Positions 181 through 9,027 of a stretch of 40,525 bases of DNA are shown one piece after another. Every line of letters begins with the position of its first letter. The stretch's first letter is position 1. A program made the position numbers and the translations under genes. The notes beneath the pieces were generated by a model. The model searched no databases and had not been told where the DNA came from. It was given only the letters and a program-made list of their open reading frames with translations. This stretch comes from a virus, in UHGV virus genome UHGV-0146833; one strand, written 5' to 3'.

Positions 181-2076
181 ATGAGCAAAGTAAAAATCGG
201 TGAATTAATAAACTCACTTGTTAGCGATGTTGAGTCAATAGATAACTCTGACCGTCCTCAAGGGGAAAAAACAAAAAAAATAAAAGCTGTTGCATTAAAA
301 TTTAAAAATGCATTATTTAATGACAAGCGAAAGTTTAGGGGGAAAGGATTAGAAAAAAGAATTACAGCCAACACATTCAATGCCTATATGAGCAGGGCCA
401 GAAAACGGTTTGATGATAAACTTCATCATAGCTTTGAAAAAAATATACATCGCCTATCTGAAAAGTATCCTTTATATAATGAGGAGCTATTGTCATGGCT
501 TTCTCTACCTGCTGCCGATATTCGCCAGAGAATGTCAGCTTTACAGGCAAAATTAAAATTAATTCTCCCTTTATCAGAAGATTTATCTAATATCAGAATT
601 GGTGATAACAAAAGTCATAATAAGTTATTAAAATTATCAAATAAATATAAAGAGTGGCAATTCGCCATTTCTGATTTAACTAGCGATAACTGGAAAGATA
701 AGCGCGATTATTTATATAAATTACTACAGCAAGGATCTGCCTTACTTGAGGAGTTGAATCAGCTAAAAGTTAACCATGAGATTCTCTATCATCTTCAACT
801 AAGCCCTGCCGAACGCGCATCTATCCAGCAACGATGGGCAGACGTTCTGCACAATAAGAAACGTAACGTGGTGGTCATTGATTACCCTAAATATATGCAA
901 GCTATTTACGATATTATAAATAGCCCTGCTACATTAAATAATCTAAACACTCGTTCAGGTATGGCTCCTTTGGCATTTGCACTTGCTGCATTGTCAGGAA
1001 GACGAATGATTGAGATTATGTATCAAGGTACATTCACTGTTTCTGGTAAGTATACCGTTGATTTTTTAGGCCAAGCTAAAAAAAGAACTTCTGATGATAT
1101 AACCAGAAAAATATATACATTATGCGAAGCGAAAACATTTGTTTATTTAATAAATGTACTTCGCTCATGCCCAGCAGCATCTGATTTTGATGATGTCGTT
1201 AAAGGTTATGGAGATAACGACACACGCTCTGAAAACGGACGTATTAATGCCATATTAGCAAAGGCTTTTAACCCGTGGGTTAAATCATTTTTCAAAGATG
1301 ACCGCCGTGTTTATAAAGATAGTCGTGCTATTTATGCCCGTATTGCGTATGAAATGTTTTTCCGCGTAGATCCTCGTTGGAAAAATGTAGATGAGGATGT
1401 TTTCTTTATGGAAATTTTAGGACATGACGATGAAAACACTCAATTACACTATAAGCAATTCAAGCTGGCCAACTTCTCAAAGACATGGAGGCCAAATACT
1501 GGAAACGAAAATACCAGGCTGGAAGCATTGCAGCAGCTTGATGACGAAATGCCTGGATTCGCCAGAGGAGATGCCGGGGTTCGTCTGCATAACACAGTTA
1601 AGCAGCTGGTAGAGCAGGACCCCTCTATAAAAATCACGAACAGCACTCTAAGAGCATTCAAATTTAGCCCAACAATGATTAGTCGATACCTGGAATTTGC
1701 TGCTGATGCTCTGGGGCAATTTGTTGGCGAAAATGGACAATGGCAGCTGAAAATAGATACTCCAGAAATCGTTATGCCTGACGAAGAAGAGCTGGAAGCA
1801 ATACCTGAACAGGTGGATGAATTATCAGAGGATGACGATCTGGATGACGACGAAATTGAGATAGAGGAAGAGATAGAGGAAGAGAGCATAGAAGAACAGC
1901 AACCGCCCGCGCCTTCTTCACCTGTATCTAAGCCGGTATTTAAGCCTGTGAGAAATATTGGTGATGGCTCATACGTTGTTGAGTTTCATTATAATGGCCA
2001 GAATTATGCTTGGTCCGGCAGTGCAAACAGCCCTATGTCAGCAATGCAGTTAGCATGGCTGACATATTTCGGATAA
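181..2076 (+). CDS. telN: Protelomerase (telomere resolvase) TelN
   Basis: 631 aa, same length as N15 TelN; near-colinear similarity to remembered N15 TelN over the whole protein (MSKVKIGELIN..., RDYLYKL, GRINAILAKAFNPWVKSFF, acidic C-terminal tract). RBS AGGAGAGGAAAG upstream. Confidence 0.92.
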   Translation: MSKVKIGELINSLVSDVESIDNSDRPQGEKTKKIKAVALKFKNALFNDKRKFRGKGLEKRITANTFNAYMSRARKRFDDKLHHSFEKNIHRLSEKYPLYNEELLSWLSLPAADIRQRMSALQAKLKLILPLSEDLSNIRIGDNKSHNKLLKLSNKYKEWQFAISDLTSDNWKDKRDYLYKLLQQGSALLEELNQLKVNHEILYHLQLSPAERASIQQRWADVLHNKKRNVVVIDYPKYMQAIYDIINSPATLNNLNTRSGMAPLAFALAALSGRRMIEIMYQGTFTVSGKYTVDFLGQAKKRTSDDITRKIYTLCEAKTFVYLINVLRSCPAASDFDDVVKGYGDNDTRSENGRINAILAKAFNPWVKSFFKDDRRVYKDSRAIYARIAYEMFFRVDPRWKNVDEDVFFMEILGHDDENTQLHYKQFKLANFSKTWRPNTGNENTRLEALQQLDDEMPGFARGDAGVRLHNTVKQLVEQDPSIKITNSTLRAFKFSPTMISRYLEFAADALGQFVGENGQWQLKIDTPEIVMPDEEELEAIPEQVDELSEDDDLDDDEIEIEEEIEEESIEEQQPPAPSSPVSKPVFKPVRNIGDGSYVVEFHYNGQNYAWSGSANSPMSAMQLAWLTYFG

Positions 2077-2087
2077 ATCATACGGTA

Positions 2088-2119
2088 AAGGCACCGAATT
2101 ATCGGTGCCTTGTTGTGTG
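2088..2119 (+). terminator. Hairpin (AAGGCACCGA-ATTA-TCGGTGCCTT) followed by GTTGTGTG after telN; weak U-tract
   Basis: 10-bp perfect stem 12 nt after the telN stop; convergent with the minus-strand operon ending at 2249. Confidence 0.4.
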
Positions 2120-2248
2120 GCCTACCTCGCCTGCCCCCTGCAAAGGGCAGAAGTAACGGAGGAAACGCGGCTGCAACCACAGACATCACCGCCCCGACTG
2201 CGAGGCTTCCCTTCTCGAAGAAGGGCATAAATTCGGGCTGGCCAACCC

Positions 2249-3031
2249 CTATTTATTGGTGATTTCTGCTGGCTTTAGCTGCGCGGACAACTGCTCAAGT
2301 TTTTGAACTGCCAGTTCAAAATGCGCGGGTAACGCCTTTTCCAGATCAGAGTTGATATCGGTGATGGGCAAATCACCACACGACATACTCCGCCTACCAC
2401 CACGAACAACATCACGCAACAACTCTCGTTCATACGTGCGCATGTTCCCCAATGCCGACTCAGCAGCCGTCAAAATCCGGCGCAGTTCTGCCGTAATTGC
2501 TGGCAAATCATCAACAGTTATGGGGTTCGGGGATGGATTACGACACGCCCGACGCAAAGCCAACCATACACCGCTAATCCAGGCATTTCGGTATTGAAAA
2601 CTTTGTGCAATATCGTTAATCAGCCCTCGCAGATACTCCTTCTGCCTCCAGTTCAACGGCTCCGCTGCTCGCATTGGCTCTGGCTCGACGTAAACGTACT
2701 CTCCATTTTTGCGAATAGAGGGCAAGACTTCGTTCGTTACCCATTTGCGAAACCGCCAAGCTGTTGTGCCTTGCTTCACCGCGTCACGGCAGCGGAGGAT
2801 CAGGGTGTATAGACCTGACTCTGAAATAATATTTAGCTTTTGCTCTCCGCCAGGGGTGTAACTTAAAGTTACACCCTTTTCATCCTCATCCAGAGACATT
2901 AGCGCCTTCCGGGAGTTAACGAGTCTTAAAGCATCACATACATCCTTAGCCACAAACCACGGCTCACCGTTAATCATCACTACACGAATCTGATGCTCTT
3001 CCTGAAACGAAAATACAGCTAACGCGCTCAT
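2249..3031 (-). CDS. Bro-N / KilA-N domain antirepressor-like protein (AntC-like position)
   Basis: N-terminal motif FQEEHQIRVVMINGEPWFVAKDVCDAL is typical of the Bro-N family; last gene of a three-gene coupled operon next to telN. Confidence 0.75.
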   Translation of the reverse strand: MSALAVFSFQEEHQIRVVMINGEPWFVAKDVCDALRLVNSRKALMSLDEDEKGVTLSYTPGGEQKLNIISESGLYTLILRCRDAVKQGTTAWRFRKWVTNEVLPSIRKNGEYVYVEPEPMRAAEPLNWRQKEYLRGLINDIAQSFQYRNAWISGVWLALRRACRNPSPNPITVDDLPAITAELRRILTAAESALGNMRTYERELLRDVVRGGRRSMSCGDLPITDINSDLEKALPAHFELAVQKLEQLSAQLKPAEITNK

Positions 3032-3261
3032 TTAGCCTCCTTATTGTGCTGCAATTGCGACGAGAGAGATGCTGAATACCCCTGTGCTTCGTGTGTTAGC
3101 TCACACGCAATTTGAAGGAGCTTCCCGGCTTCTGATAGATAAATCGACGCCTCACAGCTGGATACTGTCCGATGGGCTGATGACACGAGCGCATAGACCT
3201 GAGCCAGACGTTCATCCAACGACTCCAGCAGGCCAACAGTGTTCATTTTTACCTGATTCAT
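3028..3261 (-). CDS. Hypothetical 77-aa protein, middle gene of the antirepressor operon
   Basis: ORF in track; 4-bp overlaps with the ORFs on both sides (translational coupling). Confidence 0.55.
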   Translation of the reverse strand: MNQVKMNTVGLLESLDERLAQVYALVSSAHRTVSSCEASIYLSEAGKLLQIACELTHEAQGYSASLSSQLQHNKEAK

Positions 3262-3422
3262 GCAGCCACCTCGCGCACCGGAATACGGGCAGACAATACC
3301 AGGACAAACCGGCTGGCGAACTGGCGACGAGCTTCCCGTTCAGATGACGCGATGGTGGAAAGATGATGGATATGTGACTTTTTGTCTGTGCGAACGACTG
3401 CCGCAAATTTGAATTTGAACAT
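3258..3422 (-). CDS. Icd-like small protein (54 aa), first gene of the antirepressor operon
   Basis: Not in ORF track (<60 aa). Hand translation: MFKFKFAAVVRTDKKSHIHHLSTIASSEREARRQFASRFVLVLSARIPVREVAA. GGAG RBS 8 nt upstream; stop overlaps next start (ATGA). The ASSER-AR-FVL-RIPV pattern resembles Icd-like cell-division inhibitors as I recall them. Confidence 0.5.
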   Translation of the reverse strand: MFKFKFAAVVRTDKKSHIHHLSTIASSEREARRQFASRFVLVLSARIPVREVAA

Positions 3423-3423
3423 G

Positions 3424-3719
3424 GTATGCACTCCGTTTAATTGGTCGTGCTACCACCAGAGTTCTCACGCTCTTGAATGGTGGTAGCCCAAGCGGGGGTG
3501 AGAATACCGGCAAACGAAGAAACCGGCCTGACCGAAGTCAGCCCCGCCTGAGCCACCATAAATCGGATATGCGCAGGTATATACACACAAAAAAACACGC
3601 TGGCGCGTGTTGTGCGCTTCGTTTATCCGGGTTCTCACGCCCGGCTGCGGGATTTACCGCAGCGGAGTAACTTTACCGTCAAAACGACGCACACGTCAAT
3701 AATTTGCAAAGACATTTTA
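3424..3719 (-). promoter_or_regulatory. Structured non-coding leader upstream of the antirepressor operon; candidate promoter plus c4/CA-like regulatory RNA
   Basis: ~300 bp without a credible ORF; several inverted repeats (GCTACCACCA...TGGTGGTAGC; CTGCGG...CCGCAG; ACACGC...GCGTGT) and a repeated GTTCTCACGC motif. RNA assignment is by analogy with P1/N15 immunity regions, not shown. Confidence 0.25.
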
Positions 3720-3739
3720 CCCCGTGACCAGTCACGGGG
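3720..3739. repeat. Palindrome CCCCGTGAC-CA-GTCACGGGG (family CGTGAC-YR-GTCACG, copy 1 of 3)
   Basis: Read directly; 9+2+9 inverted repeat followed by a T-run on the plus strand. Confidence 0.7.
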
Positions 3740-3800
3740 ACAGGTGTTTTTATAGTTTGCTTGAACGAGTGATCAGAAGTTGATCGTTAATCAAAGGCCA

Positions 3801-4112
3801 TTACTGATTAAGAGATTGGAAATACCTAACTAACTTACCGGCATCATCACATTTTTCTTTATCTTCGTCCTTAACATAGCCGCGACAAAAGGCTGAATAA
3901 AATTTTGCATTTTCAGAAGCAAAAGCAGCCGTCGAAAGGAGCAACTCTTTGCATGACTCTTTTGATGCAGCATCGGGATTATTTTTACATGCAAGCTCCG
4001 CTGATGAGTTAATAACAGAAATGCTATCTTCCTGGGCATAAACCGCAGCAGAAAAGGCAAAACATAAAACAAAAATAAAACTCTTCACTTTATCTCCTGT
4101 AACAGTCATCAC
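3801..4112 (-). CDS. Small secreted Cys-containing protein (signal peptide, ~80-aa mature part)
   Basis: N-terminal hydrophobic stretch ending ...AVYA-QE typical of a Sec signal peptide; four Cys in mature part; AT-rich codon usage. Confidence 0.6.
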   Translation of the reverse strand: MMTVTGDKVKSFIFVLCFAFSAAVYAQEDSISVINSSAELACKNNPDAASKESCKELLLSTAAFASENAKFYSAFCRGYVKDEDKEKCDDAGKLVRYFQSLNQ

Positions 4113-4847: not shown

Positions 4848-5039
4848 TTACTCCCCGTTCACCGAAAAATCACGATAGAAACGTTTCCACATACGATAAG
4901 TCTGCGCGAGTTGTTCACCACGAAACATCGCCTTCCTGGCCTTCATGTTTTCCTTGTGAGACTTTCGATCTATGAACCAAAACCATTGCTGGAACACACA
5001 AAGCAAGAGACACAAAGATAATATCCACTGATTACCCAT
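4848..5039 (-). CDS. Hypothetical small membrane protein (63 aa), start overlapping the repA stop
   Basis: Internal ATG of track ORF 4848..5156; N-terminal hydrophobic helix (WILSLCLLLCVFQQWFWF); 4 nt before next gene's start. Confidence 0.4.
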   Translation of the reverse strand: MGNQWILSLCLLLCVFQQWFWFIDRKSHKENMKARKAMFRGEQLAQTYRMWKRFYRDFSVNGE

Positions 5040-8000
5040 AGAAAGCGCCCTGCTCTTCGTAGCTGCATGAGCTATTCCCGGTAATGTATTCTCGTAACCG
5101 CCGCAGTTCATTGCTAGACAAGTGATCCATGAACTCTGTGAGGTACAGAGATGCAAACGTCATAGCTATGCTGGCTGATGACCATGATGACATAGTGGCC
5201 AGCTCCTCACCGGAAAGCGCACTCATCGCCCAGGACTCAGGAACAGCCACAGGCAATACAGCCAAAGCCTGTGATATAGCTGAACGAGGGGGATCCTGTT
5301 CCTCCGTGTTTGTGGATCGCGTTTCACCATTCATATATATATTTAATGACAAATCGCGATCCACTTCGGTCGTTGATTTTTCTGCCTTGCGAGCTTTCAA
5401 CGTCATACCGTCCTCCTGACGTTGCGCAAGAATATCAAGCATAAATGCTACAGACTCAGGCTCAACAAAACGCAATGTCGGGCGCTTATCGCCATCTCTG
5501 CCGCGACGTTTTCCTGTTTTTAGGCCGAGAGAGTCGCAGATGTTTTTAAACAGTGCTTCCGGCACTTTAGGCTTCCCTTTTGGTGTCATAAAACCACCAA
5601 TGCGCAGAACGTTATTCAACAGGTCACGGCGTTCTGCTGTCATGAGATTATCTCGAGCGAACTTAAGGCGTTCCTGCGTCGCTTCGCCGGTCATAGTTTC
5701 AGGGTCGATACCGCAGTCGATAAAGTACTGCCGGAGAGTTGCTGATTTAAGCGCATAGAATCCGCGCATGCCGACCTCAACAGCTGGGGTGGCTTTTACC
5801 TTGTAGTCGATTATTCCCGGAAATTTCGCTTTGAATACATCATCAGCCTGCTCGCGTGTCATCGCGGTCACCACAAAATATTGCCACTGTCCGGTCTGGC
5901 GATATGCGTATGTAAAATTGATAGCCGCTTCTTCACGGTCATAACGACGGGCAGTGACTTCATCAAGCAGCATCGTTTCATAACGGCGAATTTTGTCTCG
6001 AGCGCCATCGAAATAGAATTTCAGTGTGCCTTCTTCAACCGGTAATTTCAGTTCGTTCTCAATATCCCAGCGGACCAGTTTTGCCTGTTCTTCAAGCGTT
6101 AGCGCACGTTTTTTTAGTAGTTCTTCACGCTCTGATTCTTCTGGTGTCTCTGTATTGAGGTGCAGATCCAGCGTCTGTTCCCACACAATATCCCGCGCTT
6201 CTTTGCGCAGCTCTTTACCAAAATCGTTCGCGGCATAATCGGTAGCTAATGGTGATACCTTATAACCGTCGCTGTGCATGATGCAGATCATGTTGCTGGC
6301 GTAGTCGTTACGCGCAGACGCTTCAATTGCGGCTGCTTTAATTTTCATCCTGGTAAAGTCGGTATTGGCTACCCCCATTGATATACGGTCGCCATCGAAA
6401 ATGACATCCGTCAGTTCACCGTTCATGCCTGCGGTAGCAAGTAATGCCTGGGCGAATGCACGTTCTATTTTTTGCGGATCAGTCTCGCGTTTTGCACGGG
6501 CTTTATCAAAGCCAATAATAAATTCTTTTGCTGTACGGTCGCGGCGTAGCATTTGCACTGCGTCGCTGGGCACAACTTCACCGCAGAACATGCCGAAATG
6601 ACGGTCAAAATGTTTTTTCTCAAATGACACCCCGGAGGAAATCGACGGGCTGTAGATCAGTCCATCGTATTTCATCACCATTACTTTTGGCTGGCTGGTA
6701 AAGGCATCGACTTCTTCATCCTGTTTGCTTTTCTGGTTTACGCACAGAAATTTCTTGCCAGGGAAATGCATTCTCAGGGTGGCGGTCACATCTTCTGCAA
6801 AGGTGGAGCTGTCGGTGGCCAACATAATTTTTTCGCCATCCGATACAGCTTTCACCACCTCGGTCATGATGCGATCTTTTTCTGTATAAAAAACCCGGAT
6901 TGGCTCACCTGTTTCGCGGTTGCGAACATCAACAGGTAATTCAATTACGTGGATCTGCAGCCATGCCGGTAAACCTAGTTCTTCACGGCGTTTCATAGCC
7001 AGTTCAGCCAGGTCAACCAGCAGATCGTTCGCATCAGCATCCACCATGATTGGGTGTTGTTCCGTTCTGGCCAGCGCGTCAATTAACGTATTGAATACAG
7101 CCACCGGGTTTTCCATAGCCCGACCGGAAAGAACGGCACGTAGCCCTTGTGTTGCCTCGTCAAAGCCAAAATAGTCGTGCTGGCGCATCAACGGTTGCCA
7201 GCAGTTTTTAACAATCGAGTTTATGCAGATGGTCAGTTTACTGGCGTATGGAGCCATTTCCTGATAGCCAGGGTCCTGATAGTGCAGGATATCGGCTTTT
7301 ACACCTTTTCCTTCTGTCATCATTTCCCACAGGCCACCAATAAGGGAGACACGGTGAGCAACAGAGATACCACGTTCTGAGCTATGCATTAACGGTCGTA
7401 ACAATCCAGTAGATTTGCCGGAACCCATACCAGCACGGACGATGACTATCCCCTGTAGTGATTGCACGTACTTCAGGACATCATCGGTCATTACCGAAGT
7501 TTCAAAACGCTTATAGGTGATATGTTGAGGGCGTTTATTGGGATCAGTTATGCGTTCGCTGAAAGAGCGCGGAGCCTGGGCAATACGGCACTTTTTATTC
7601 AGGCGACGGGCAATGTGGTCTTTTACCGTAGCGCGATAGATATTTTCCAGTCCCATTTCACGCAGAACGATGCAGAACATGTTAAATAAATCTGACGGAC
7701 TGTTAGGAACCGGACAGGTTAGCATGCCAATATCCACCGCTCTCAGCAGCTCTTTGGCAAAAGTACGACGGTTATCCCGCTTAATTGTCTTCAGGCGGTT
7801 GAGCGTCAGAGATAGCAAATCAGTGCCGGTTTTCAGGCGGTTTGCTGTTGCGAATAGTTGACGTGCTGTTTCACGAAGTCCACGTAGTTTGTGCAGGTCG
7901 TTGAAGTCACTGCACTCCATTTGCGGATCGTCTTCAAAAGTTGGGTAGACGCAGCGGACATCGTTGAATTTAGATAAGATTTCATAGCCAGTCCGCAGGC

Positions 8001-9027
8001 CGGTATTCCCTTTTCCTTCTGTGGCTGATTTCCGGTCATTATCCAGTGCGCAGGTGATTTTTGCCGCTGGGTACATGTTTACCAGTTGTTCCACAACATG
8101 AACCATGTTGTTAGCGGATACAGCGACAACCACAGCGTCAAAGCGTTTATCTTTTTTCGTGGCAAGCCAGATGGATGCACCAGTAGCAAAACCTTCTGTA
8201 ACAGCGATGTTTTGCGCCCCTTTCAGCTCACCGATAACAAAGCAGGCACCGACGAAATCGCCGCTGGTTACTGCGGTGGTCTGGTATTTCCCACCTTGTT
8301 TGTCGATTCGCTGCCAACCCACAATACGACCATCGTAACGACCGTCCAGATGAGCCAGAGGGATAGCCATATATGTGGTTGGCCCCCGGCTCCATTTCGC
8401 ACTGTCGTGACTGGTCACGCGACGCACATCACACGAATTAAAAACGTCACGAATACCTTTTTTAATCGCATATGGCCATGAGCCGTCTTCTGCAGGAGCA
8501 TGTTCCCACGCGCTGTGGAATGCCAGCCATCCCAGCAAACGTTCATGGTCCATTTGGTTGTTTTTCAGGTCATTAATTCGTTTTTGTTCTTCACGGCGAC
8601 GACGTGCTTCGGCCTGACGTTCTATTCTTGCCCGTTCTTCTTCCGGTTGTGCGACCACGGTCGCATTATTCCGTTGTTGCTCACGGCGATATTCAGAAAA
8701 CAGGAAGGAGAAACCGCTCCATGAGCCAGCATCGCTGCCTTTATGGACGAAGTTAATGAACGGGTAATCAATCCCTTTGCTGTGTTCCAGCCTGGAGTAA
8801 ATTTCTACGCGTCCTTTCAGGCTCTTTTCGAGAGCTTCTGGAGATGTTTTATTGTATGAAGAGTAACGCTCAACCCCCCCACGAGGGTTGAGTTGGATGT
8901 TGTCGGAACAGGCAGGCCAGTTGATACCAGCCATTTGTGCCAGCTCGGTTAGTTCATCCCGTGCTGCTTCAATTAGCGAGAACGGATCGCTGCCAAAGCG
9001 ATCCGCATAGAAATCGTTTAATGTCAT
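5032..9027 (-). CDS. repA: Replication protein RepA (primase-helicase multidomain, N15 RepA-like)
   Basis: 1331 aa (N15 RepA is about 1324 aa by recollection); Walker A-like GMGSGKST in the C-terminal half; position between the telN side and cB as in N15. Confidence 0.85.
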   Translation of the reverse strand: MTLNDFYADRFGSDPFSLIEAARDELTELAQMAGINWPACSDNIQLNPRGGVERYSSYNKTSPEALEKSLKGRVEIYSRLEHSKGIDYPFINFVHKGSDAGSWSGFSFLFSEYRREQQRNNATVVAQPEEERARIERQAEARRRREEQKRINDLKNNQMDHERLLGWLAFHSAWEHAPAEDGSWPYAIKKGIRDVFNSCDVRRVTSHDSAKWSRGPTTYMAIPLAHLDGRYDGRIVGWQRIDKQGGKYQTTAVTSGDFVGACFVIGELKGAQNIAVTEGFATGASIWLATKKDKRFDAVVVAVSANNMVHVVEQLVNMYPAAKITCALDNDRKSATEGKGNTGLRTGYEILSKFNDVRCVYPTFEDDPQMECSDFNDLHKLRGLRETARQLFATANRLKTGTDLLSLTLNRLKTIKRDNRRTFAKELLRAVDIGMLTCPVPNSPSDLFNMFCIVLREMGLENIYRATVKDHIARRLNKKCRIAQAPRSFSERITDPNKRPQHITYKRFETSVMTDDVLKYVQSLQGIVIVRAGMGSGKSTGLLRPLMHSSERGISVAHRVSLIGGLWEMMTEGKGVKADILHYQDPGYQEMAPYASKLTICINSIVKNCWQPLMRQHDYFGFDEATQGLRAVLSGRAMENPVAVFNTLIDALARTEQHPIMVDADANDLLVDLAELAMKRREELGLPAWLQIHVIELPVDVRNRETGEPIRVFYTEKDRIMTEVVKAVSDGEKIMLATDSSTFAEDVTATLRMHFPGKKFLCVNQKSKQDEEVDAFTSQPKVMVMKYDGLIYSPSISSGVSFEKKHFDRHFGMFCGEVVPSDAVQMLRRDRTAKEFIIGFDKARAKRETDPQKIERAFAQALLATAGMNGELTDVIFDGDRISMGVANTDFTRMKIKAAAIEASARNDYASNMICIMHSDGYKVSPLATDYAANDFGKELRKEARDIVWEQTLDLHLNTETPEESEREELLKKRALTLEEQAKLVRWDIENELKLPVEEGTLKFYFDGARDKIRRYETMLLDEVTARRYDREEAAINFTYAYRQTGQWQYFVVTAMTREQADDVFKAKFPGIIDYKVKATPAVEVGMRGFYALKSATLRQYFIDCGIDPETMTGEATQERLKFARDNLMTAERRDLLNNVLRIGGFMTPKGKPKVPEALFKNICDSLGLKTGKRRGRDGDKRPTLRFVEPESVAFMLDILAQRQEDGMTLKARKAEKSTTEVDRDLSLNIYMNGETRSTNTEEQDPPRSAISQALAVLPVAVPESWAMSALSGEELATMSSWSSASIAMTFASLYLTEFMDHLSSNELRRLREYITGNSSCSYEEQGAFYG
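8406..8419. repeat. Palindrome CGTGAC-TG-GTCACG inside repA (copy 2 of 3)
   Basis: Read directly. Confidence 0.7.
8650..8665. repeat. Palindrome TGCGACC-AC-GGTCGCA inside repA (centromere-like family, copy 1 of 6)
   Basis: Read directly; resembles the F-plasmid sopC inverted repeat (TGGGACCACGGTCCCA as I recall). Confidence 0.7.

Follow-up and report, generated by a model that had tools for sequence, protein, structure and literature searches.

Gene content of the locus

The window analysed here, the whole 40,525-nt stretch of the virus genome UHGV-0146833, is an N15-like linear phage-plasmid, and between positions 2249 and 3719 its minus strand carries three genes preceded by a leader of about 300 nt. 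The genes make up the coupled operon that a first-pass annotation had described at these same coordinates, and both junctions within it are ATGA stop/start overlaps. In the direction of transcription they are:

3258..3422, minus strand: icd, a 54-aa Icd-like inhibitor of cell division and the first gene of the operon to be translated (NCBIfam NF033153, RefSeq)
3028..3261, minus strand: antA ortholog, 77 aa (N15 gp31 antirepressor), its start overlapping the icd stop (ATGA)
2249..3031, minus strand: antB, 260 aa with a Bro-N domain, ortholog of the auxiliary antirepressor N15 gp30, its start overlapping the antA stop (ATGA)

The Icd-like gene of the operon is the 54-aa ORF. It had been reported as missed by the ORF track; the frame itself is real (ATG at 3422 to 3258), but the ORF list does hold it, as 57 aa from a GTG at 3431. 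The ATG at 3422 lies 8 nt downstream of a GGAG Shine-Dalgarno and is also the start used in the RefSeq annotation of an identical plasmid. The product matches positions 1–48 of the 48 of the NCBIfam profile NF033153 phage_ICD_like (67 bits vs. a cut-off of 25, E 1.1e-18) and shares 94% identity with the N15 copy (locus L018). The conservation in relatives on which the first-pass reading leaned was borne out, with the ORF kept in 48 IMG/VR loci at 56–100% identity.

AntA shares 63% identity with N15 gp31 (E 2e-30) and matches PHROG 10889 'anti-repressor' (2e-18), and the phiKO2 annotation describes Gp28 as 'similar to antirepressor N15 AntA'. AntB, whose gene has its own Shine-Dalgarno (AAGGAGG), is 74% identical to N15 gp30 (E 1e-151), matches Pfam Bro-N (PF02498) with its N-terminal residues 14–104 (78 bits vs. 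25.6, 8.5e-22) as well as PHROG Ant families (best 1.7e-50), and its phiKO2 equivalent is annotated as 'auxiliary anti-repressor AntB'. Going by the N15 and phiKO2 orthologs, the small 77-aa AntA is likely the primary antirepressor and the Bro-N protein the auxiliary AntB. The terminator scan of the minus strand found no canonical terminator after antB; the phiKO2 annotation places a putative bidirectional terminator at the site equivalent to the 3′ side of antB.

Promoter and RNA elements of the leader

The segment 3423–3719 is strongly structured and contains no conserved ORF, which agrees with the earlier description of a structured leader of ~300 nt without a credible reading frame. The structure is not a product of chance, because the Rfam C4 and isrK matches exceed their curated thresholds and because 34 distinct related leaders conserve it and carry compensatory changes. 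A single regulatory RNA had been suggested for the leader; such an RNA is indeed predicted, but there are two RNA elements, an IsrK/c4-a1b1-type leader preceding a C4-type RNA:

3670..3699, minus strand: predicted sigma-70 promoter, equivalent of N15 Pa (-35 TTGACG at 3699-3694, 18-nt spacer, -10 TAAAGT at 3675-3670)
3588..3663, minus strand: IsrK / c4-a1b1-type leader RNA, ~75 nt (Rfam isrK)
3663-3644, minus strand: leader hairpin 1, with both-side changes in 4 of 7 pairs
3643-3628, minus strand: leader hairpin 2, displaying a1 (GUGAGAA, 3638-3632) in an 8-nt loop
3624-3617, minus strand: b1 (AAACGAAG), single-stranded in the predicted fold
3611-3594, minus strand: predicted intrinsic terminator stem, followed by a U7 run to 3588 (terminator scan)
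3476..3563, minus strand: predicted C4/CA-type antisense RNA, 88 nt (Rfam RF01695)
3519-3512, minus strand: b′ (CUUCGUUU), in the loop of the second C4 hairpin
3504-3498, minus strand: a′ (UUCUCAC), in a single-stranded joint of C4

The promoter was the sole sigma-70-like site found within 2100–3900, with a transcription start predicted near 3663; among the 34 relatives its -35 is invariant, while the -10 keeps T1, A2 and T6 and varies at the middle positions. The leader RNA starting there matches isrK (RF01394) above its gathering score (64.1 vs. 50 bits) and falls just under the gathering score of c4-a1b1 (RF03163; 43.1 vs. 46.7 bits, E 1e-9), a model passed by 9 of the 19 scanned relatives that carry an IsrK-type leader. 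In each of the 19 relatives scanned, N15 included, the C4 and isrK matches are both above gathering.

A covariance-model search with the c4 model gave a full-length match at 3476–3563, inside the interval (3430–3700) in which a small RNA had been anticipated (RF01695: 82.2 bits vs. a gathering score of 45, model positions 1–87 of 87, E 8e-15). The fold has a long closing stem that encloses two internal hairpins, and the segment reaches an MFE of -47.9 kcal/mol (z = -6.6). In 33 distinct sequences its three helices keep 98.5–100% pairing and show compensatory changes; in the first internal hairpin, 4 of the 5 pairs have changed on both sides. The 3′ end reads ...CUACCACCA, and a tRNA-like ...ACCACCA end is visible in the sequence. 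C4-type RNAs are stable, ~77 nt long and trans-acting, and are released from the leader by processing (by RNase P in P1).

The same segment can be read as a protein, since RefSeq places WP_001386897.1, 'ash family protein', at 3559–3437 (minus strand) in the identical plasmid; the conservation described above would then reflect a real 40-aa Ash family protein and not an RNA. The translation matches Pfam PF10554 Phage_ASH above gathering (37.5 bits vs. 26), and the positionally equivalent orf45 of Gifsy-1 has been shown to be translated (PMC4825925). Followed from its conserved ATG through the 34 relatives, however, the frame shifts, and its end varies between 15 aa and a read-through that reaches icd. 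Substitutions in this region are compensatory for the RNA stems, and the ATG sits within the -48 kcal/mol stem without a Shine-Dalgarno. N15 cA was likewise first annotated as a protein, yet the account of the system in PMC4488713 has it controlled by a small processed RNA. We consider a protein origin of the conservation highly improbable, and the coding reading was rejected despite the PF10554 match, as relatives do not keep its frame.

Target sites, pairing and covariation

Downstream of C4, two further elements lie in front of icd:

3458..3473, minus strand: small hairpin AGAG/CUCU, displaying target a2 (GUGAGAA, 3468-3462) in an 8-nt loop
3431..3438, minus strand: target b2 (AAACGGAG), containing the icd Shine-Dalgarno GGAG (3434-3431)

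The a′ element is complementary to the GUGAGAA exposed in hairpin loops both upstream (a1) and downstream (a2), and b′ is complementary to b1 and b2; two exposed elements with target pairs on either side (a1, b1 and a2, b2) are a trait of the C4 family. Complementarity between the leader and the region next to the icd ribosome-binding site, which had been put forward as a check, is therefore present in the form of a′/b′ matching a2/b2, with b2 covering the Shine-Dalgarno in this window and in 34 of 34 relatives. The window contains a single a2...b2 pattern (0.02 expected), and a search across the window for a further a...b target pair of C4 returned nothing beyond this cognate site.

The pairing, which the first-pass annotation could not read off with confidence, is now defined and has covariation support: the a/b sites of the 34 distinct relatives co-vary three ways. 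The 7-bp a′-a2 helix is 100% paired in 33 distinct leaders and a1-a′ is 92% paired, with both-side changes in 5 of 7 pairs in either case, counts that stand for non-independent events because the 34 leaders are linked by descent and recombination, and that fit pairing in trans and in cis alike. When the partner was slid by 1–3 columns, pairing over the tested structure (52 pairs) fell from 99.6% to 34–45%. Mean duplex energies, for which the b sites were taken by alignment columns, were lower for cognate than for non-cognate partners in all four duplex types (a′-a1, -9.1 vs. -1.1; a′-a2, -9.3 vs. -2.3; b′-b1, -12.3 vs. -7.1; b′-b2, -9.9 vs. -6.6 kcal/mol), and 0 of 10000 permutations reached the observed cognate energies for any of them. 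The b′-b2 duplex of the present copy comprises 9 bp at -9.1 kcal/mol. In cofolding of C4 with the mRNA or with the short leader, the monomer folds were not outcompeted by the short a/b helices; since MFE cofolding is uninformative for loop contacts of 7–9 bp, this result was set aside and the covariation relied upon.

Relationship to N15 immA and other known systems

Taken together, gene order and homology indicate that 2249–3719 on the minus strand is very probably (at about 85%, in our estimate) the ortholog of N15 immA, i.e., the secondary-immunity (anti-immunity) operon of an N15-like linear phage-plasmid. The locus shares synteny and orthology with N15 immA and phiKO2. Like N15 immA (Pa - cA/CA RNA - icd - antA - antB), it is positioned between the repA-side genes and telN in the same order and on the same strand (telN / antB-antA-icd-cA leader / repA-side genes, convergent with telN). 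The equivalent spot is labelled cA, 'secondary immunity repressor', in U63086, and the phiKO2 annotation gives the three genes as icd, AntA antirepressor and AntB auxiliary antirepressor. The proposal of a P1/N15-type anti-immunity region is thus upheld by the C4 match, by synteny and orthology with N15 immA and by the phiKO2 annotation. In PMC4488713, which summarises Ravin et al. 1999, N15 immA consists of icd, antA and antB under the control of a small processed RNA. By analogy with the N15 literature as covered there, and with the phiKO2 annotation, AntA (with or without AntB) would inactivate the CB prophage repressor, and Icd would block cell division.

The N15 leader is ~79% identical to the present one, with the promoter, the predicted terminator and the C4 scaffold in common; the N15 sequence scores 78.8 bits for C4 and 62.4 bits for isrK. 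The recognition elements, in contrast, differ at all three places, so that the a/b specificity of the present copy, as read from its sequence, is not that of N15. For the a element, a′ UUCUCAC faces GUGAGAA here, whereas N15 has GUUGAGAA facing UCUCAAC; for the b element, b′ CUUCGUUU faces AAACGAAG / AAACGGAG here, whereas N15 has CUUCUUGU facing ACAAGAAG. Given these differences, no cross-repression is predicted between N15 and the present copy; the mean energy of non-cognate a duplexes is -1 to -2 kcal/mol.

The kind of system is already known, namely from N15 CA, P1/P7 c4, P4 CI and Gifsy-1 IsrK. The immI region of P1/P7 is reportedly arranged as c4 antisense RNA - icd - ant1/ant2. Compared by description, P1/P7 c4 belongs to the same Rfam RNA family as the present C4, uses the same two-element (a′, b′) recognition of a1b1 upstream and a2b2 downstream, and is likewise followed by icd as first ORF, on which antirepressor expression depends. 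P1 and P7 are heteroimmune through altered recognition sequences. Unlike P1/P7 with Ant1/2, the locus described here encodes a small AntA and a Bro-N AntB, and it resides on a linear plasmid prophage. The cI region of satellite phage P4 is 78% identical to the C4 segment over 111 nt, and P4 CI resembles the present C4 as a leader RNA that is processed and that has complementary sites upstream as well as downstream of it (PMC4825925 for P4; processing is predicted here); in P4, however, CI RNA is the primary immunity factor, it terminates transcription of the replication genes, and no icd/ant genes follow. The Salmonella Gifsy-1 locus isrK - STnc1160/orf45 - anrP (Hershko-Shalev et al. 2016, PMC4825925) has an IsrK-family leader with an intrinsic terminator, as predicted here, read-through into a C4-like processed RNA region, and a downstream antirepressor gene expressed via translational coupling, as we propose for the present operon. 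It differs in the translation of orf45 and its direct coupling to anrP, in the absence of icd, and in the stress laid on the short leader RNA as an activator.

Proposed regulation and alternatives

P1 Ant is under the control of C4, an antisense RNA, and of Icd (PMC8201110). In the present locus, the constitutive-looking promoter at 3699–3670 would initiate a transcript whose first 75 nt would form the IsrK/c4-a1b1-type leader, showing the target copies a1 (in a loop) and b1 (single-stranded), and would stop at the intrinsic terminator. Read-through transcripts would continue into the 88-nt C4/CA-type RNA and then into icd-antA-antB, and C4 would presumably be excised from the leader, as in P1 and N15. 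The RNA would contact the mRNA just downstream, single-stranded a′ with the a2 hairpin loop and loop b′ with b2, and this pairing would block icd translation, as b2 contains the icd Shine-Dalgarno. With icd blocked, the antirepressor would not be made, because translation of antA and antB is coupled to that of icd and because, by analogy with P1, the untranslated icd would expose the transcript to Rho; the prophage repressor would thus remain active. The a′/b′ elements can also pair with a1/b1, and this might make transcripts more likely to end at the intrinsic terminator; another option is titration of C4 by the short leader RNA. The CA RNA of N15 may block translation, cause termination, or do both.

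If termination were the main mode, as in P4, C4/CA would pair with a1/b1 (and a2/b2) on nascent transcripts and end them prematurely at 3611–3594 or at downstream Rho-dependent sites, in place of occluding the icd ribosome-binding site. P4 CI RNA terminates transcription in this manner by base-pairing to seqA (upstream) and seqC (downstream) (PMC4825925), and the 78% DNA identity of the C4 segment to the P4 cI region points the same way. Further, just 5 nt separate the end of b1 from the terminator stem, and the covariation with C4 is as tight for a1/b1 as it is for a2/b2. However, termination alone would not explain why b2 lies over the icd Shine-Dalgarno in all 34 relatives, and termination upstream of C4 would stop C4 synthesis too (autoregulation). 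No clear antiterminator was found in the leader, where the alternative hairpin has just 4 bp on the RNA strand. We regard this mode as rather unlikely compared with the translational block.

A different role for the leader RNA is suggested by its isrK match above gathering. In analogy to Gifsy-1, the RNA at 3663–3588 would itself be a trans-acting regulator: with a1/b1 as near-perfect mimics of the mRNA sites, it would bind a′/b′ in free C4 or in the read-through transcript and turn icd-antA-antB translation on. The b′-b1 duplex is on average stronger than b′-b2 (-12.3 vs. -9.9 kcal/mol), which implies that the leader would compete effectively for C4. In the predicted MFE structure of the unprocessed 269-nt leader, a1/b1 pair with a′/b′ in cis, the C4 fold is not formed and the C4 3′ arm pairs with the conserved downstream GGUGGUAGC; the cis pairing resembles the inactive 'structure A' helix b-I of isrK-orf45. 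In Gifsy-1, a 139-fold activation of anrP translation results when short IsrK is supplied in trans, and IsrK is followed downstream by the processed RNA STnc1160 (PMC4825925). The Gifsy-1 layout is nonetheless unlike that of the present locus, with orf45 overlapping the C4-like region, coupled directly to anrP and without icd, and the frame of the orf45 equivalent is not conserved here. Such activation, which we hold to be possible though doubtful, would amount to a switch made of two RNAs, with C4 repressing and the leader RNA lifting the repression; it would add a layer to C4-mediated repression of icd without excluding it.

Specificity diversity and implications

Among the 34 distinct leaders there are at least five a classes and about eight b classes, in 18 combinations. 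Some relatives also have extra 'orphan' C4 genes of foreign a-specificity, the class of the present window included; a search for targets of the orphan b′ loops (L046, L023) in all fetched loci returned their own antisense strands only. As a tentative idea, to which we give less credence than doubt, the two short elements of C4 may serve N15-like phage-plasmids as a combinatorial address code that would define many mutually orthogonal anti-immunity specificities; the leader would then be the cognate decoy that sets the switch threshold, and orphan C4s might silence the antirepressor operons of competitors. If this were true, co-resident or superinfecting relatives could not silence each other's antirepressor.

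The principle known from P1/P7, N15 and P4 is left unchanged by these results, and at the present locus their main value is correct annotation: the regulator is one or two RNAs, displayed in RefSeq as an 'ash family protein' CDS, and the likely primary antirepressor is an unannotated 77-aa protein and not the Bro-N protein. With their natural series of compensatory mutations, the aligned relatives define the pairing between C4 and its targets at nucleotide precision. They indicate that recognition has diversified modularly, which predicts which N15-like phage-plasmids cross-repress each other's induction, bears on the co-existence of phage-plasmids in clinical Enterobacteriaceae and offers orthogonal RNA repressor/target pairs for engineering.

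Genomic setting and operon genes

The icd/ant operon and its leader (2249-3719, minus strand) are situated between the protelomerase and RepA genes, and megablast places the region with the N15-like phages (Ravinvirus), with 91% identity to YDC107_1, 93% to PhiR46_1 and, across icd and the leader, 79.5% to N15. The three-gene coupled operon described in the first-pass annotation was recovered, with ORFs of 54, 77 and 260 aa and ATGA stop/start overlaps at both junctions, by which antA and antB are coupled to icd.

Genes of the operon and its flanks
181-2076 (+), protelomerase, 631 aa; TelK muzzle, stirrup, N-terminal and catalytic domains
3031-2249 (-), antB ortholog, 260 aa; N-terminal Bro-N domain (8.5e-22), many PHROG Ant families
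3261-3028 (-), antA ortholog, 77 aa; PHROG 10889 'anti-repressor'
3422-3258 (-), icd, 54 aa; full-profile match to NCBIfam phage_ICD_like (E 1.1e-18)
5032-9027 (-), RepA, 1331 aa

In the ORF list icd appears as 57 aa from a GTG at 3431; its start was set at ATG 3422 because a GGAG Shine-Dalgarno lies 8 nt upstream and the RefSeq start is there. The 54-aa ORF is conserved in related genomes, as an Icd protein search of IMG/VR gave 48 loci. None of the Pfam and NCBIfam families matched the 77-aa protein. Identity to N15 was 94% for Icd, 74% for the 260-aa protein (gp30) and 63% for the 77-aa protein (gp31), and the phiKO2 record names the orthologs as Icd (cell-division inhibitor), AntA (antirepressor, the small protein) and AntB (auxiliary antirepressor, the Bro-N protein). 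The operon is thus the ortholog of the characterised N15 immA locus, and its RNAs belong to curated families. In phage PhiR46_1 (locus L056, 219-383) the leader, icd and antA are retained while the antB position holds only a 54-aa remnant, which fits an auxiliary or dispensable role for AntB.

Directly upstream of the operon promoter lies the gene of a 103-aa protein (3801-4112, -) that contains several cysteines and whose N-terminus resembles a signal peptide. The PhiR46_1 ortholog is annotated as 'Spackle exclusion protein', and the PHROG family of the 103-aa protein carries no functional assignment; judged from these features, the gene is a possible candidate for superinfection exclusion.

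Leader RNAs and pairing elements

The ~300 nt upstream of icd (3423-3719), earlier noted as lacking a credible ORF, contain no conserved ORF. When the whole window was compared with Rfam at curated thresholds, two matches and no others emerged, both within the leader and on the operon strand; one is the full-length C4 match that the proposed c4 covariance-model search was meant to reveal. Rfam already includes a model for the a1b1 targets (RF03163), which matched slightly below its threshold in a more permissive scan.

Promoter and RNA elements of the leader
3699-3670 (-), sigma-70-like promoter, TTGACG-18-TAAAGT; the sole such site in 2100-3900
3676-3624 (-), RF03163 'a1, b1 targets of C4 antisense RNA'; 43.1 bits (threshold 46.7), E 1e-9
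3663-3590 (-), isrK (RF01394); 64.1 bits (gathering 50)
3611-3594 (-), terminator-like hairpin followed by seven U, at the 3' end of the isrK-type element
3563-3476 (-), C4 antisense RNA (RF01695), full length; 82.2 bits (gathering 45), E 8e-15

Given the promoter position, transcription is predicted to start at ~3663, where the isrK match also begins. The N15 record marks a putative Rho-independent terminator at the position of the terminator-like hairpin. The C4 fold, in which a long closing stem encloses two internal hairpins, has an energy of -47.9 kcal/mol (z = -6.6), a stability equalled by no shuffle. Another hairpin (3719-3738, -; CCCCGTGAC-TG-GTCACGGGG) is conserved ~20 nt upstream of the -35 element. 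Almost all relatives share an unchanged GTGAC-NN-GTCAC core, and the outer pairs are partly compensated; the two most divergent leaders lack the hairpin. It was not picked up in the scan for terminators, and could either terminate transcription of the operon upstream or serve as an operator for a protein.

A search for complementarity near the icd ribosome-binding site, as the first-pass annotation had suggested, identified complements of both C4 recognition elements (a' and b').

Recognition elements and targets
3638-3632 (-), a1, GUGAGAA; 8-nt loop of the second leader hairpin
3624-3617 (-), b1, AAACGAAG; complement of b'
3519-3512 (-), b', CUUCGUUU; second hairpin loop of C4
3504-3498 (-), a', UUCUCAC; single-stranded joint of C4
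3468-3462 (-), a2, GUGAGAA; 8-nt loop of a small AGAG/CUCU hairpin just 3' of C4
3438-3431 (-), b2, AAACGGAG; complement of b', includes the icd Shine-Dalgarno

Both copies of GUGAGAA are exact complements of a'. The targets run 5'-a...b-3' and the C4 elements 5'-b'...a'-3', so antiparallel pairing fits, and the window contains a single a2...b2 pattern where 0.02 would be expected at random. The predicted b'-b2 duplex occludes the icd Shine-Dalgarno.

Covariation among relatives

The 48 IMG/VR loci together with N15, YDC107_1 and pEC12401-3 yielded 34 distinct leaders. The leader was present in 19 of the 20 loci scanned with Rfam (18 IMG/VR and GenBank relatives, plus N15), and in all 19 both C4 and isrK scored above gathering. 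Across the 34 relatives the -35 element is invariant and the -10 retains T1, A2 and T6.

In the alignment of leaders (A2), the a'-a2 helix was 100% paired in 33 distinct sequences and the a1-a' helix 92% paired, each with changes on both sides in 5 of 7 pairs; compensatory changes were also seen in the C4 helices and leader hairpin 1. When the 3' partner was slid by 1-3 columns, pairing of the whole tested structure (52 pairs) fell from 99.6% to 34-45%. The b sites were compared by duplex energies because they contain indels. Cognate against non-cognate energies (kcal/mol) were -12.3 vs -7.1 for b'-b1 and -9.9 vs -6.6 for b'-b2, next to -9.1 vs -1.1 for a'-a1 and -9.3 vs -2.3 for a'-a2; for each duplex, 0 of 10000 permutations reached the observed cognate energy.

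Five a classes (UUCUCAC in the window, UUGAGAA in N15, UUGCGAA, UUCCUAC and GUUCCAA) and about eight b classes were found in 18 combinations among the 34 leaders, which are related by descent and recombination, so that neither covariation nor class counts represent independent events. One class switch at three separate sites would nonetheless be hard to explain without pairing. The N15 recognition code differs from that of the window at all three sites, and therefore no cross-repression is predicted.

Two relatives carry two extra tandem C4 genes each (L046, 1944-2031 and 2043-2130; L023, 1941-2028 and 2040-2127; 64-66 bits), located after a strong terminator and upstream of the resident Pa-isrK-C4-icd unit. 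Their a' elements, UUCUCAC (the class of the window) and UUCCUAC, belong to other classes than that of the cognate C4 in the resident unit, and no b targets matching these extra copies were found in any of the loci retrieved; these orphans may be aimed at antirepressor operons of other phages.

Proposed mechanism

For N15, a small processed RNA is described as controlling the immA operon, which encodes Icd, AntA and AntB (Ravin et al. 1999, cited in PMC4488713); for P1, regulation of Ant by C4 antisense RNA together with Icd is documented (PMC8201110). In APSE phages, the c4 and isrK families occur in tandem beside a Bro-N gene (PMC7313666). Both RNAs are also annotated in one Stx-phage record, and the P4 cI region is 78% identical to the C4 segment of the window. 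In P1, c4 reportedly blocks icd translation, leading to Rho-dependent termination before ant (Biere, Citron and Schuster, 1992).

The proposal that the leader may encode the regulatory RNA of a P1/N15-type anti-immunity region is supported by the Rfam families, the folds, the covarying complementarities and the orthology with N15. We infer that C4 would be excised from the read-through leader and would then pair with a2/b2, blocking icd translation; AntA and AntB would consequently not be synthesized and the prophage repressor would stay active.

The role of a1/b1 is less certain. By analogy with P4, C4 might bind nascent a1/b1 and promote termination at the adjacent intrinsic terminator. Compatible with this, the short terminated leader RNA might serve as a decoy or activator like IsrK of Gifsy-1, where IsrK in trans gives 139-fold activation of the antirepressor downstream and the processed RNA STnc1160 occupies the position corresponding to C4 (PMC4825925). 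In the predicted MFE fold of the unprocessed 269-nt leader, which resembles the translationally inactive 'structure A' of the Gifsy-1 paper (PMC4825925), a1/b1 pair with a'/b' in cis, so that action in cis and in trans cannot be told apart by covariation alone.

In the same fold the 3' arm of the C4 closing stem (GCUACCACC, 3479-3487, -) pairs with its perfect complement, the invariant GGUGGUAGC (3448-3456, -) downstream of a2, which displaces the C4 stem and puts a2 in a loop. This helix is beyond covariation testing because both strands are invariant; as modelled, the pairing may act as a processing or refolding switch.

Distribution and the 'ash family protein' annotation

The leader of plasmid pEC12401-3 (E. 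coli EC12401, NZ_CP135212.1, 45,247 bp) is 100% identical to that of the window. A leader of this type was present in 18 of 5,426 complete E. coli genomes, in each case on a plasmid; just one of the 18 matches the window allele at 99% identity or more. The C4 part matches about 1,700 plasmids at ~76% identity, 1,385 of them conjugative. In the single plasmid inspected (pLKSZ01, E. coli IncI-gamma/K1; L054, 1501-1611), the C4-like segment lies in the transfer-regulation region, directly upstream of traA and a NusG-family gene and away from icd/ant.

Exactly over C4, RefSeq annotates a 40-aa 'ash family protein' in pEC12401-3 (WP_001386897.1; corresponding to window 3559-3437, -), as it does in the majority of the 18 leader-bearing E. 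coli plasmids, and Pfam PF10554 (Phage_ASH) matches the translation with 37.5 bits. Among the 34 relatives, the ORF from the conserved ATG changes frame, with ends ranging from 15 aa to read-through into icd, and substitutions within it keep the RNA stems. This pattern of sequence change indicates that what has been annotated as a CDS is most likely the RNA gene read as protein; N15 cA and P4 cI were likewise annotated as proteins in early records. The ash protein family may therefore largely represent translated C4/CI-type RNA genes.
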